From the NCBI GenBank assembly GCA_030425685.1, contig JAUIAD010000017.1:1324-65323 (forward strand): a stretch of DNA of 64,000 nucleotides, written 5' to 3'. The DNA is from Gammaproteobacteria bacterium. Its GTDB lineage: Bacteria; Pseudomonadota; Gammaproteobacteria; Coxiellales; Coxiellaceae. Within the stretch, counting starts at the first letter, position 1; every line of letters begins with the position of its first letter. A program made the position numbers. This document shows positions 24,001 to 30,000 of the stretch, one piece after another.

Positions 24001-27000
24001 CTAAGTAGAATATCGATAGCTGAGCGTTCCTGACTCGGAATATATTGCACGATATCTTGCGAAACATCACACTGTTTTAACGCTAGTTGTAAGGCATTCA
24101 CGATGACTTTATTCGTATGAAGGCATTCAGAACCACCTCGTAAAATAACCGTATTTCCTGACTTGATACAAAGTGCTGCTGCATCAGCGGTGACATTAGG
24201 TCTTGATTCATAAATAATAGCGATAACGCCAATAGGGATACTGACTCGGGATATCATTAAGCCACTTTCAACACGCCATGAAGAACGAACTTTTCCAACA
24301 GGGTCGGGCAATTCGGCAATCTTATTAACCGCTGCAACGATACTCTCTATTCGTTCTTTCGTCAGCAATAAACGATCTATCAAAGCCGGCGATAGCTGCT
24401 TCTCTTTTGCTTTCTCAATATCTATCGCATTAGCCGATAAGATAGATTCCGCTTGTTGAGATAAATGTTGTGCCATTACATTTAAGATTTTTGACTTTTT
24501 GTCAGCGGTAAAATTAGCGAGTTCCCGAGAAGCAACTTTGGCTTGTCGGCAAGCATTTTCAATAGTGTTTTGTATTGTCATAGTCTATCAATTTAATAAA
24601 GCAAGATTGTCTCGATGAATGGCCTCATGGCAGCCATTATACCCCAATATAGTCATAATGTTATTTGTCTTTTGCCCAATAATTTTTAACAGGTCATCAT
24701 GGCCATAATTTGTTAGCCCCCGGGCTACTTCCTGCTGCGTTGATGTCATTACTTTAACAGCTGCCCCTTTTTGAAATTTTCCGATGACCTTAACAATACC
24801 AACAGGTAGTAAACTAGCCCCTTGCTGTAAGGCCTTTAAAGCACCATCATCAATAATCAACGTTCCCATCGGTTTTAAATGCTCACGTAACCAGACTTTT
24901 TTCATATTCTGCGATGAATCCTGAGCGACAAACCACGTTCCTTTTTCTGTTTGCAGATAATGAGTGATAGGATGTAAATGCTTACCGGAGGTAATAACCA
25001 TATGACAACCACTATTCATCACGATACGTGCAGCGTCAAGCTTCGTAATCATACCGCCTGAGCCCACATTGGTACTCGATTCTTTTGCCATAGCGACAAT
25101 ATCGGCTGTTAAATGCTCTATTTGCGACAATAAGCGCGCCTCTTTATTGGTATGAGGATTATCCGTGTAGAAGCCATCAATATCAGAAAGTAAAATTAAT
25201 GTGTCAGCATCAACCATCTGCGCCACACGTGCTGATAAACGATCATTATCACCATAGCGAATTTCATTTGTGCCAACAGAATCATTTTCATTGACGATAG
25301 GCACCACATTTAATTCAAGCAACTTTTTAAACGTATTACGTAAATTAATATACCTTCGCCGATCTTCCGTATCATCAAGCGTCAAAAGTACCTGCGCGGT
25401 TTTAATCTGCTTAGCGGCAAATAAAGTATGGTAGTGCTGTAATAATTGAATTTGTCCAATAGCAGAAGCCGCTTGCTTGCCATCTAAAGAGCATAACTGA
25501 CTAGCATCGCCAAGTAAGAACCTCCCCAGGGCCACAGCACCAGAAGAAACTAACACCACTGACTTTTGTTGCTGGATTAATGTCGTTACATCATCAATTA
25601 AACTGGTCAGCCAAGGCACATTAATGCCCTCTCCCTGCTCATCAATCAACAAAGAAGAACCGATTTTAATCACAATACATTGGCTAGAAGTCAATTTCAT
25701 TGACATAGTGTGTATAAATATCACCCTTGTGTCAACCACTCCCACTCGCTAAAATAAAAAAGTAGCCATATACTGAGTACTGCCCTGCAGCAATGCATCA
25801 AAACGAGTTATGTCTGATGTTGCGGCATAGCGTAGCTCATTCCAATACGACAACGACCAGGCTTGGTATGTGGTTACTGCAAAAGGAAGCATGCATGTTA
25901 AACAGGACGCCAGACCTTAAAACTGCTTTATTGCAGAAAAAATACTATGCGAACTATATTATTAAATATCAACGCCAATGCATCGATAAACCACAAAGTC
26001 AACAAAATAAAGGTGTGTTATCCATTCACTCCTTAGCCATACATCGACGCAAAATCAGTCGCCTGCTAGTAAAACAAATTAAAGAACAGCGTTATCAACC
26101 ACAAAGTGTGGAAGAAAACATTGTCCGCGTTAAAGAAAAAGACCGTGTTATTTGTAAACTTAACCCTTTCGATATGATTGCGCAGGGTGTTATATCACAA
26201 CTTATTACCGCACGCTTAACAGACTACATCAGTAAAAGTGTTTATAGCGTCAAGAATCGCTCTAACTATATGGCGGCAAGGCAGTTAGGCGAATTTTTTA
26301 GAAAGCATCAAAACAAGAAGAGATGCGATTTATTCGTTATCCGCACCGATATTAGCGCCTATACAGACAGCATCCCTCTTACCAAGACGGCACCTTTATG
26401 GCAGCGCTTACAATCAATACTAACATTTCTTCATGTGGACGATGACTTTGCAAGCTATTTATTATCACTGCTCAAACAATTCTTACGGCCAATCATTAAA
26501 AATGAAGACGGGTTATACTATCAAAGATTGTTAGGCACACCGATGGGATCGCCATTATCTGCCTTAGTGGCTACCTGCTATTTAGTCGATGTGGATCGAC
26601 TATTCTCAACCATGGACGATATATTCTATGCACGTTACGGCGATGATATTGTGATTATCGCCACCGAGGAAAAAAGAATTCTTCAATGTGATACCTTGCT
26701 AAACACACACATCAAACCCTTAGGGCTACACCGAAATCATCAAAAAGACCAGCTTATCTATTTAACACACTGCGGCAAACCCTATAAGAATGATCTATTT
26801 GAACATTCACATTGTGTCAATTACGTCGGCTACTCAATTCAAGCAGATGGCACCTTAGCATTAAAGTCCAAAGCAATACGCACCATTAAACGCGACCTAA
26901 AGCGGCGTGTCAGAGCACTTGTCAATTGTAGCAAGGGCATGTCGCTACACGAACAAGGGCATTTTATCTGTCAAACCATTAACCGTGCCTTTTGTCCCGG

Positions 27001-30000
27001 TGATGCCTTAAGTGTAGAAAAAGTTGATCTTCTTATTCACTGTGTCACCAATCGGAAACAGTTACAAGATCTAGATTACTACCTCGCTAAAACCATTGCT
27101 GAGCAACTCTCCGCACAGCGAGGCGTTAGAGCTTTTCGCCATATTACCTATAAAAAAATACGTTCTCAATGGCAGTTGCACTCTTTAAATCAATTACGAA
27201 ATGGAAAAAGATACTAAGATGAACGAACTAGTACGGTGGGAGAAAAAACAAAATAAGCGGTTGCAGCGTTACGTACCCATTGCCAGCGCACTACTGGGAG
27301 CAAATCCATTACGCTACATTGGTTACCGACTACGTTACTTTATTATCATTACCATTGTCGGACTTGCCTCACACGTTATTGAATTCTCTGTCTTGTTTGA
27401 TCATCTTGCGATAAAAAACTTTATTACTTTGATTTACTTTAAAGCCATCTTGATGTTAATAACCGGCACCTGGTGGGCTTGTCTTGAGATATTGCGTGAA
27501 AAGGTAAGGGACTTTTACAAGGGTAATCACAAATTAAAAATTAGTGCTGAAATTACTGCGTGGCTCACGCTTACCGCACTGATCTGCCTGGTGATCATAC
27601 TTAGCAGTTCAACCATAATCCAAAAACCATGGAAGGACATAACGCAAGGAAAATTACCGTTATTTGATTTATATTTCTTTACCCTACTAATTCAGTTTGG
27701 CTGTCAACTATTTTCTAAGACCCTGCATGCTGGTTGTTATGCCATCAAACGAATTTATCGCCCGATTGGCAATATACTTATTTTTGAAGTTGTTGGTCTG
27801 GGTTTGCTCGCACTCTTATATCCATTCTTTCATGCCTACAGCTTACCCTTGGCCTTTTTTATTGCCAGCCTACTTAATGTCTGCGCATCGATTTATTACA
27901 GCATTAACATGTATAAATTTCTAAACATTAAAGCCTTCCACTATCGGTCGATTCTAAAGAATTATAAGGAGCGCTTAATTAGAATATTTAATATTCGACT
28001 ATTATTAGCCTGTTTTTCTGGTTTATTGATGCAAATTGAAAGCGTTCTGCTTGTCATGCTGCTCTATCATACCGTGCATGATCATGACAACACACATGCT
28101 ACCGTAGTTATTTACTTTATTTCGCCATTAATACGCGCAAGCTTCAATTGGGTGAAGTTATTTTATTACGATTTACGAAGGTATAGTCATCGTCGTTATC
28201 AGTTAATGATTAAAAATCTCAATAAAGCGATTACGCAAGCTGCTTTTATAATCGCTATTGCTTTTTGGCTGCTATCTTTTTTTATTTCCATCTTTTTCAA
28301 TCTTAAAGATGCCTATTTATTATTGATGCTACTACCCTTTTACTTAGTCCGCTCCATTGTCGCGCATAAGCAAATTGATGCCTTTTGCCAAGATCGCTAC
28401 TTTGACATTATTTTAAGTGGGTTAATTATTACAGCGGCCTTGCTATTCTGTTTATTAGCAAACTTACCTATTGATCCGTTGCTCACAACAGTAACGATCG
28501 CGATGGCGGCCTCATGCTTTTACCTCTATATAATTGCAACAAAACCCATCCCCTATAACCCATCCGGTAGCCATACCTTCCCTCTATACACATGGATCCA
28601 CCGTTTACGACGGGAGAAAAGAGGTATTAGAATATACTCGCTTTCATTCTCAAAAAAGAAATCTGGCCAACACATAAAAGCCTTATTAAATAAAATGAAA
28701 GACGATAAACGTTGTCACTTTAGCTCCACAAGACCAGGAGAAGATCATCTCTTTTGTTACGAACGAAACCGTTATTTTCAATATCGCCACAGTGTAATTC
28801 AATTAGCGTCAGGAACCATTAGAGACTTCAATATCCTTAATAATACAACAGGAGAAAAATCCTATCGACAATTGATCGCCACAAGCATTATCGGTAAGCC
28901 CCAAAATTTCTCCCAACAGCCGCAAGAAGTATTTTTGCAACGCTTTAGCGATGGAATAATTATCGACCTAACAAAGAAAAAGCATGACGTTATTAGCCAT
29001 TTTCCACCTGAACAGGTCAGTGATATTTTTTACCAAGTGGAACACTTCGCTAAATACCCACTAAAGAAAATCACCCAACGCTCCTACTACGCAACGGCCT
29101 ATTTTATCGATGATATTATCCAAATGATTTTTATTATCAATCGACAAACACACGATAAAAAAGCGATTAATAGATGGCAAGACGCTATTCACAGCTTTAA
29201 TATACAGTGACCGTAGTAAGTATGGCGTAGACCACCACTAAATACAAAAGCTTTCCTACTATGTTTGCTGCATAATACCGCTATGCAGCAGCTGCGACCG
29301 CCAAGCGATCAGCCATATCATCTTCCCAAACGGCTTCGCTGTGTGTTCGTTCTGGATGAAACCAACTAAAATAACCACGCTGACCCTTTAATACATCATG
29401 GTTATCTGGTAACTCCTTCCTAGTTCGGTACGTCTCAAAAGATCGATTAAAAAACCTAGCCTTTTCGGTAGATTTGGAAGCATAGGAAGTCCCTAGGCCT
29501 TTCAACTCTAACAATCCCCGCTGGTATTCAACTTTTTTATTTATTCTAGGCAACGCTGGTTTGTCTTCGTCAGCATGGTGATGTTCATGTTCATGTTCAT
29601 CAGCATGCTTATGATGATGGTGATGGTGATGTTCATCAGCGTGCTTATGGTGATGATGATGACCAGCACTCCAGAACTTCCCTGCTGTCGCTTTCCAACA
29701 GGCCTTAAAACTAAGCCCACTTAGAAAACTATGAAGCAAGCTCATTATCGGTAATAGTGGCGCAATCGTAAAGGCAATTACAAAAAGTTTTCCAGCTATA
29801 TTCGCGTGCGAGTGCCCATCGTCTTCAACCACATCCATCTCAGGCAATGCCTTATGCTCATGATCTGGTTTATGCCCACCACAACCGCCTTCTTCATGCA
29901 CATATGACAAATCCGTTGCCCCTTCGATAATACCACCGGCAATTGAAGCCACCCTAGCAGGAACAAAATAAGCTTGATCGGTAGTGGCACCTTCGCTAAT

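Follow-up and report, generated by a model that had tools for sequence, protein, structure and literature searches.

A reverse transcriptase, a membrane protein of predicted MOP fold and a predicted two-hairpin RNA form an uncatalogued bacterial module

What does a stand-alone reverse transcriptase (RT) do when its gene is coupled to that of a large membrane protein? The question is raised by a locus within 64,000 nucleotides (the window) of a Coxiellaceae genome recorded as Gammaproteobacteria bacterium (assembly GCA_030425685.1, contig JAUIAD010000017.1, positions 1,324 to 65,323 of the forward strand), where an RT gene at 25895-27217 is followed directly by a membrane-protein gene at 27219-29210, both on the plus strand. 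Public records list the two products as a 'reverse transcriptase domain-containing protein' and a 'hypothetical (membrane) protein', and we found no description of this RT/membrane-protein pairing in the literature. We report that the RT clade, the partner family and an associated RNA motif make up a previously uncatalogued, widespread module, and, as far as we could find, the first case of an RT coupled to a predicted MATE/Wzx/MurJ-type fold. The module adds an RT clade outside UG1-39/Abi, a membrane family of ~500 representatives and a covarying RNA motif outside Rfam.

The RT gene codes for 440 aa, with finger and palm motifs in which the catalytic motifs D.x.YTDSIP and FYARYGDD are intact by the family alignment, and residues D152, D250 and D251 are invariant. 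RVT_1 is the sole Pfam domain (E = 2e-11), with no further recognisable domain in the protein; a conserved C-terminal helical region of ~120-140 aa carries an RGVRAFR motif. The open reading frame (ORF) can be read from an ATG at 25793, giving 474 aa, and this is the start taken by the public gene call; we prefer 25895, because the homologues (430-448 aa) align from there and a Shine-Dalgarno-like AAGGAAG, read from the sequence at 25883-25889 (plus strand), lies 5 nt upstream. The 25793 start is probably mis-called, since the extension it adds (25793-25894) crosses the candidate RNA hairpins described below and is common to no homologue. The RT stop codon TAA is at 27215-27217 and the junction reads TAC TAA G ATG, leaving two options for the start of the partner, either an ATG at 27201 that overlaps the RT gene by 17 nt (669 aa) or the ATG at 27219, 1 nt past the RT stop (663 aa). 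The second is the more likely, because the N termini of homologues align with it. For the ORFs, the motifs, the RT start and the junction our analysis agrees with an earlier reading of the window made from the sequence alone (the sequence-only reading), which had placed the RT ORF, its intact motifs and its start as here, had given both alternatives at the junction, and had noted that the pair lies between proBA and a convergent gene unrelated to it.

Across many phyla the RT and the membrane protein are inherited together as an obligate pair, whose genes are usually coupled in translation. A word-indexed homology search gave one relative of the partner (37% identity), which lies beside an RT of 45% identity with a 13-nt overlap and in a different genomic context; an exhaustive profile search with a hidden Markov model (HMM) of the partner family then gave 500 representatives at E <= 1e-3, 275 of them at E <= 1e-30 (median length 686 aa), and we reject the notion that the family is rare. 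Distant RT relatives (~30% identity) all adjoin large unannotated membrane proteins that are homologous end to end to the window partner (22-24% identity, E = 1e-43 to 1e-55), and a search that starts from divergent partner proteins also leads back to the RT family. Scanning 185,579 species representatives, one genome per species, with the RT motif FYAR[YF][GS]DD yielded 80 loci from >10 phyla (identified below by L numbers). Their hosts include Legionellales/Coxiellaceae (among them the cultured L. longbeachae and L. gratiana), Actinomycetota/Gaiellales, Chloroflexota, Myxococcota and Bdellovibrionota, as well as Rickettsiales, Verrucomicrobiota, Acidobacteriota, Aminicenantes, a metagenome-assembled Waddlia genome and others.

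At 77 of the 80 loci the partner is found at the RT; a divergent partner at L081 brings the count to 78, and the remaining two RTs lie at contig ends. Neither in these species-level loci nor in look-ups from the partner side does the RT ever have a different neighbour in the partner's place. The spacing from RT stop to partner start is mostly -4, -1 or -13/-14 nt, and at L006 and L086, where the gene order is inverted, the genes are still adjacent. Identities among the RTs track those among the partners (r = 0.90 over 53 pairs), and none of 999 Mantel permutations gave a value as high. The proposal that the locus is a two-gene system is thus upheld by adjacency, by mostly overlapping genes and by co-divergence, and the genes are syntenic in essentially every RT-carrying genome, one of the points on which the sequence-only reading had been prepared to see the proposal fail. 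Some 130 assemblies of L. longbeachae and L. sainthelensi carry the pair (in L. longbeachae NSW150, RT CBJ13858.1 and partner CBJ13860.1). A Polyangiaceae contig carries two tandem copies of a lipoprotein-RT-partner unit (L056, 121-9992), each with its own upstream RNA hairpin.

By profile scores the RT resembles the Class 2 UG/Abi RTs, without clear membership of any defined group. The PADLOC model that best matches the window RT is RT_UG26 (92 bits, spanning model positions 34-382 of 398), followed by Drt9 (77 bits) and UG4 (75 bits). Among 23 RT family members that we scanned, no UG/Abi/DRT model goes beyond ~E = 1e-28, or ~92 bits; the nearest (Drt9, UG26, UG17, UG27 and Drt3a) all fall at ~E = 1e-22 to 1e-28, and a generic RT model scores similarly to Drt9, UG26, UG17 and UG27. 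Neither the window RT nor any of these 23 members has a strong profile match to UG1-UG39 or the Abi groups. The closest solved structures by RT sequence are 9ioa/9nlv (84 bits, covering the palm and the C-terminal region) and GsI-IIC (82 bits). We considered UG26 membership and rejected it on score, the match being 92 bits only. UG26 is a Class 2 UG/Abi group of 35 members and unknown function, whose defence status was left inconclusive and whose occasional partner, in 9 of the 35, is a YcjD/Vsr-like endonuclease (Mestre et al. 2022, PMC9226505); such an endonuclease is absent among the recurrent neighbour clusters and Pfam families of the module described here, and no membrane partner has been reported for UG26. 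The numbering of defence-associated RTs (DRTs) ends at DRT11, which is UG5. The myRT paper has Legionella RTs prominent among its unclassifiable RTs, and the accession named there belongs to a different locus.

The hallmarks of better-known retroelements are missing as well. The retron model NF038233 gives 25 bits against a cut-off of 235, and TIGR04416, the group II intron RT/maturase model that is the best NCBIfam match, gives 73 bits against a cut-off of 300. Rfam scans find no retron RNA, and no Intron_gpII or any other Rfam RNA in 24500-32000 at E <= 1; we detected no maturase X or endonuclease signature in the RT, and no template or variable repeats (TR/VR) of a diversity-generating retroelement (DGR), the sole repeat family longer than 27 nt in 24500-31500 being a 36-nt tandem repeat in a neighbouring gene. 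The sequence-only reading had seen no signature of a retron or a group II intron and no TR/VR repeats, and would have counted a known clade with a canonical partner against its proposal. Its negatives hold, and the RT falls into no such clade: among the catalogued models that we could test, for retrons, DGRs, group II introns and the Abi and UG groups, none fits. Some public records label relatives of the RT automatically as 'Retron-type reverse transcriptase'.

The partner has no Pfam or NCBIfam match even at E <= 1 and matches no PADLOC family; its family profile matches no PDB sequence and has no profile link to MatE, Wzx or MurJ. By hydropathy it has ~10-12 transmembrane (TM) segments, all within aa 40-445, and after them a soluble stretch of ~220 aa; the sequence-only reading had counted about 12 hydrophobic helices and a cytoplasmic domain of that size. 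An AlphaFold2 (AF2) model built on a 76-sequence alignment is confident (pLDDT 92.9, pTM 0.93). In this model the membrane part (aa 36-445, numbered from ATG 27201; 27306-28535, plus strand) has the twelve-helix, two-lobed fold of the MOP superfamily (MATE/Wzx/MurJ). The top 50 Foldseek matches in the PDB are all MOP-superfamily transporters (MATE, Wzx flippase and MurJ), with a best E of 1.5e-7 and target-normalised TM-scores of 0.53-0.63 over ~460 columns at ~13% identity. An amphipathic helix is predicted at the N terminus. The cytoplasmic alpha/beta C-terminal domain (aa 460-669; 28578-29207, plus strand), modelled separately by AF2 (pLDDT 90.5), has no Foldseek match in the PDB at E <= 1e-3; short of that threshold, ACT, NikR and acylphosphatase-type domains match over part of its length (80-90 residues), a weak lead that it may consist of tandem ferredoxin-like/ACT-like modules. 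The sequence-only description of the partner as unrecognisable therefore needs to be withdrawn for the membrane part, where Foldseek recognises the MOP fold, and can be kept for the C-terminal domain.

Conservation across the family falls in both parts of the protein. In the C-terminal domain, which is conserved family-wide, G538 and W659 are present in at least 95% of members. Conserved residues of the TM domain are Y39, R43, R45, H58, E61, W91, W92, E96, R99, R103, H176, Y180, R184, R187 and D324. Nine of them (R43, R45, E96, R99, R103, H176, Y180, R184 and R187) form a mainly basic cluster on the predicted cytoplasmic face of the N-lobe, and when conservation is mapped on the predicted helices H58 and E61 form a pair inside TM1 and D324 is invariant. 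The likeness to MATE, Wzx and MurJ proteins lies in the fold of the first ~450 residues and in conserved charged residues within and at the ends of TM helices, whereas only the partner has the amphipathic N-terminal helix, the 220-aa domain of unmatched fold and the coupling to an RT. The intramembrane polar residues, together with HlyD fusions in relatives, hint indirectly that the partner may translocate a substrate by alternating access.

The sequence-only reading had proposed a novel RT-based pair, and novelty and pairing stand; to these comes a conserved structured RNA of the family, which could not be recognised from a single sequence. A two-hairpin RNA, predicted from covarying stems, accompanies the RT-partner pair on the RT strand. 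Upstream regions across phyla share the near-exact motif AGAGAC[Y]GCGGTCTT. Of 88 sources 39 have it, on the same strand as the RT and typically 66-170 nt ahead of the RT start, and the conserved core hairpin is GAGAC-YGCG-GUCUU. The bases that flank the motif differ between loci yet stay complementary, and a second hairpin just upstream behaves alike. Measured from loop to RT start, the distance has a 5-95% range of 57-173 nt in the family, with a median of 110 nt. Variant cores are compensatory (GUGAU-UGCG-GUCAU and AGAGUC-UGCG-GAUUU).

Whereas RNAalifold on a MAFFT alignment recovered the inner 5-bp stem only, the outer stems were obtained with a seed covariance model and Infernal re-alignment. 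Pairing holds in 96% of the cells of the Infernal alignment, double-sided changes occur in 16 of the 18 pairs, and the covariation score is 0.61, compared with 0.20 for shuffles (0 of 500 reach 0.61) and ~0.1 for slid registers. An unfitted test gave a concordant result: 36 of 96 YGCGG sites at -250 to -30 on the RT strand have at least four consecutive flanking pairs, as against 3.4% elsewhere (Fisher p = 3e-27), and these cover 36 of 65 non-redundant loci. The conserved G-U pair and the strict strand bias point to an RNA rather than a DNA operator. No Rfam family matches the two-hairpin element.

The element is not always in the leader. At Chloroflexota loci and at L066 it lies downstream of the partner gene, which argues against a simple 5'-UTR switch; the downstream copies (18-27 bits; Chloroflexota and one Rickettsiales) are at L022 8494-8556, L033 10652-10716, L046 10498-10562 and L066 10543-10603. 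The only clear opposite-strand case, at L035 895-959 (minus strand), has an exact core, scores 34 bits and lies ~2 kb upstream of the RT. L015 has the core UUUAGUGAU-UGCG-GUCAU twice, at ~6657 and ~6893, which places the two copies 296 and 60 nt before the RT gene begins. We also considered a retron-like long closing stem round both hairpins, from folds of the window, L001, L015 and L040, and rejected it; over 36 loci, enclosing pairs number 9.3, against 9.6 in flank-shuffled controls (p = 0.68).

In the window itself, the segment at 25786-25838 (plus strand) is probably a diverged copy of this RNA, judging by its fold, its YGCGG site and its spacing. Hairpin 1 is UGCA-GCAA-UGCA (25786-25797), and hairpin 2 (25805-25838) is a stem of 14 bp, interrupted by two bulges, whose inner part AUGU/GCAU closes a UGCG tetraloop (25821-25824). 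The sole YGCGG site at -250 to -30 on the RT strand of the window (25821) is the one that forms hairpin 2; the minimum free energy fold of the leader gives the H1+H2 layout of the family, and the loop is 74 nt before the RT start, within the family range. A composite two-hairpin pattern, which we defined after the site at 25786-25838 was seen, occurs twice in the 64-kb window, both strands counted (background 0.044 per kb, with ~0.01 expected here). Its other occurrence, at 20235-20265 (plus strand; GUUUUU-UGCG-GAAAC), is AT-rich, intergenic between two minus-strand genes and probably due to chance. Counting against the candidate, its local fold z-score is only -0.49. The covariance model detects the element weakly in the closest relatives (L001, 10.9 bits in the equivalent place; L005, 13.8 bits). 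No U-tract follows hairpin 2 in the window.

Relatives of the module carry accessory domains and genes that bear on what the partner might do. Six of eight long partner variants have an extra TM segment followed by HlyD_3/HlyD_D23 periplasmic-adaptor domains, and two others carry cyclic nucleotide monophosphate (cNMP)-binding domains. The adaptor fusions recall HlyBD-TolC, MacAB-TolC and EmrAB-TolC, in that HlyD barrel-sandwich domains stand on a TM anchor in ~5% of partners; unlike those HlyD-type tripartite exporters, the inner-membrane component here would be of the MOP type and not ABC, MFS or RND. HlyD-adaptor fusions are not known as a trait of MATE, Wzx or MurJ proteins. Among the conserved neighbours of the module we saw no TolC-like gene. 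The fusions favour real transport over a simple toxic pore. The cNMP-binding domains recur in three arrangements, fused to the partner, as a standalone gene just downstream (Gaiellales-type loci), or in a CPBP-protease fusion between the two genes. The last is seen at L055 8244-9371 and at L030 (L. longbeachae and L. gratiana), where a 375-aa cNMP-binding and Rce1-like/CPBP protease gene stands between RT and partner, with an EAL-domain gene upstream of the locus and a 2H-phosphoesterase-like gene downstream. At 22 Myxococcota/Bdellovibrionota loci a third conserved gene lies directly upstream; its product has a lipoprotein-type signal together with repeats that are Cys-rich or EGF-like.

Nothing marks the window copy as a recent insertion. 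Flanked by proBA and the convergent gene, the pair matches its surroundings in GC content and has no flanking direct repeats, no tRNA and no adjoining integrase-sized ORF, and the sequence-only suggestion of an inserted islet is not sustained. Among the 136 nearest neighbours of the module covered by a PADLOC scan, ~4 loci have clear defence genes and the rest are overwhelmingly housekeeping; the one neighbour domain that recurs is cNMP-binding. No copy of the module turned up on 72,556 plasmids or in 50,697 phage genomes, and it has no close relative in IMG/VR, where distant RTs only were found. The closest relative of the window's module, L001 (5473-8415), follows immediately on genes for a tyrosine integrase and a Fic-domain protein of 504 aa, the latter a 579-bit match to PDC-S24, a defence candidate in PADLOC; most other loci lack such an island-like context. 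Intracellular bacteria (Legionellales, Coxiellaceae, Rickettsiales, Chlamydiae) stand out among the hosts of the module, as do predatory or social ones (Bdellovibrionota, Myxococcota).

Known systems close to the module include the Class 2 RTs that depend on a noncoding RNA (ncRNA), namely UG2/DRT2, UG3+UG8/DRT3 and UG28/DRT9 (PMC9226505). Like them, the RT described here is a stand-alone protein, they being of ~400-500 aa and without an extra recognisable domain, and in the family a predicted structured RNA lies beside the RT on the same strand, mostly 5' and sometimes 3'. The differences are the obligate 12-TM partner, which those systems lack, the absence of a defence-island or mobile-element context, and an RNA that lies outside Rfam. 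An RT beside a membrane protein is also found in UG17/DRT10, in AbiA/UG23 with SLATT (PMC9226505; bioRxiv 10.64898/2026.04.29.721553) and in retrons with 2-TM effectors, and UG17 is among the closer HMM matches of the RT family. SLATT proteins, however, have two to three TM helices, are predicted pore formers and are swapped between RT systems (PMC9226505), whereas the partner here is ~670 aa long, with a predicted 12-helix transporter fold and a cytoplasmic domain of its own, and is never exchanged but co-diverges with the RT. To group II RT/maturases the RT domain is about as similar as it is to the UG groups (TIGR04416 and GsI-IIC, at the 73 and 82 bits given above), and the idea of an RT that recognises a hairpin encoded beside its own gene is shared; the score below cut-off and the lack of intron RNA and of mobility signs set the module apart.

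We propose, with about even confidence, that the window holds one copy of a module of structured RNA, Class-2-like RT and MOP-fold, transporter-like protein that works as a unit, with the RT guided by the RNA and coupled to true transport. By analogy with DRT2, DRT3 and DRT9, the RT would bind the two-hairpin RNA and use it, or an adjacent stretch, as primer or template for making DNA. The complex of RT and RNA, or the DNA so made, would then act on the cytoplasmic face of the partner, made up of the basic N-lobe patch and the C-terminal domain, and the output would be true translocation of a substrate across the envelope and not a non-specific pore. In some lineages transport might reach the outer membrane through the fused HlyD adaptors and be tuned by cyclic nucleotides. 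The intramembrane polar residues, the adaptor fusions and the lipoprotein partner, of secreted type, speak more for a working envelope transporter than for a toxic pore. We further speculate that what the RT makes from the hairpin RNA, whether DNA or a conjugate of DNA with RNA or protein, is itself the cargo of the MOP-type transporter, which we think unlikely. If it were so, the cargo would cross the whole envelope in lineages with HlyD adaptors and lipoprotein partners, and this would be a new route to extracellular or surface-bound nucleic acid.

Several points weigh against an RNA-guided RT coupled to transport. RNA binding, templating, the DNA product and transport are all steps that we infer, and every characterised UG/Abi RT (DRT1-11, AbiA/K/P2) is anti-phage. 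The match to the MOP fold is moderate at the TM-scores (0.53-0.63) and ~13% identity obtained and comes without a sequence-profile link, and HlyD fusions are found in ~5% of partner representatives and not in the window copy, where the partner ends after its cytoplasmic domain. As to the RNA, the covariation alignment was fitted to the model and the unbiased test covers the inner hairpin only; ~45% of loci have no recognisable hairpin in the expected zone, and with filters off the covariance model R2 finds no credible copy in the window (best 5.5 bits, E ~4). The survey of neighbours was small (136 proteins) and used crude ORF calls. As to role, we consider one in conflict or anti-phage defence a serious prospect that falls just short of even, an export or envelope function outside defence plausible with rather less confidence, and something else altogether a minor possibility.

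The sequence-only reading had likened the pair to abortive-infection systems with a membrane effector, and a full defence explanation along these lines would have the RT-RNA complex sense phage and the DNA product open or misdirect the partner as a toxic effector, with collapse of the membrane potential and killing or arrest of the cell. By analogy, defence is favoured over export because the characterised UG/Abi RTs are all anti-phage; an ncRNA is required in several Class 2 groups, the pairing of an RT with a membrane effector is well established (UG17/DRT10, AbiA/UG23 with SLATT), and L001 adjoins an integrase and the PDC-S24-like Fic protein. The patchy occurrence across phyla, the divergent lineages within Legionellales and the tandem duplication in L056 also suit such a system. 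However, the likeness to abortive infection is an analogy only: with clear defence genes at only ~4 loci there is no enrichment in defence islands, the module has no copy on plasmids or in phage genomes and no close IMG/VR relative, and it is stably present in the ~130 L. longbeachae/L. sainthelensi assemblies. The RT is never found with another effector, whereas replacement of SLATT effectors in AbiA and UG23 was reported by Mestre et al. (PMC9226505). The predicted 12-TM fold, the intramembrane polar residues, the HlyD fusions and the lipoprotein are far more machinery than depolarisation needs, and we regard this explanation as possible but doubtful. If the module is defensive all the same, screens based on guilt by defence-island association would miss it, because it is chromosomal and sits amid housekeeping genes. 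The direction of signalling could also be reversed. The partner, with its adaptor or lipoprotein accessories in the periplasm, would then sense a disturbed envelope, or a phage protein directed at MurJ/Wzx-like flippases, and turn the RT on by a signal through its cytoplasmic domain. The MurJ-like fold (PDB matches include MurJ bound by phage single-gene lysis proteins), the HlyD fusions and lipoprotein partners that could probe the envelope, and the regulatory look of the conserved cytoplasmic domain are compatible with this. It is pure analogy nonetheless: the sequences do not separate sensor from output, no toxic or effector domain downstream of an RT output is visible in the module, and the weak defence context counts against a sensor as it does against an effector, so that we rate it very unlikely.

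The remaining explanations take the module apart. The hairpins may be an ordinary cis-regulatory leader (an attenuator, an autoregulatory protein site or a riboswitch-like element) and not a substrate or template of the RT. Group II intron RTs bind a hairpin near their own start codon and so autoregulate their translation; here most loci have the element in the 5' leader (median distance to the start codon, 110 nt), and no template-like repeat or product was identified. A leader sits poorly, however, with an element 3' of the partner in the Chloroflexota loci and L066, with the two hairpin cores of L015, with the missing U-tract after hairpin 2 in the window and with the functional use of flanking ncRNAs by related Class 2 RTs, and we think it improbable. 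Effectively refuted is the view that the RT is part of a retroelement, mobile or classical (a retron, a group II intron or a DGR), with the membrane gene as a neighbour unrelated to it: the 'Retron-type' auto-labels and the group II RT/maturase model as best NCBIfam match are outweighed by scores of 73 against 300 bits for group II and 25 against 235 for retrons, by the lack of intron or retron RNA in Rfam scans and of TR/VR repeats, and by the adjacency in 78 of 80 genomes and the co-divergence of both proteins.

Domesticated bacterial RTs (retrons, DRTs, Abi) have recently yielded unexpected biochemistry and useful tools. The adaptor fusions suggest, as a possibility open to test, a link between reverse transcription and transport across the envelope; should the module prove to be a defence system, it would still bring a new type of effector or sensor. 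L. longbeachae, a human pathogen that carries the module, offers a culturable system for its study.

Two further features of the window are recorded here. The convergent neighbour of the pair (29281-31305, minus strand) codes for a 674-aa multi-TM protein with a His-rich tract HHHHHKHADEHHHHHHHKHADEHEHEHHHADE, which is encoded by the 36-nt tandem repeat, at 29575-29658; the protein has no Pfam, PADLOC or NCBIfam match and is a singleton at 90% clusters. The other window proteins looked up (proA, an ABC-F ATPase, the RT and the partner) are likewise singletons at 90% identity, and by its closest relatives the lineage is probably Legionellales-like. We considered this gene as a third component of the module and rejected it, as no homologue lies beside other copies. 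The largest ORF in the window codes for 2470 aa and lies at 50484-57896 on the minus strand.

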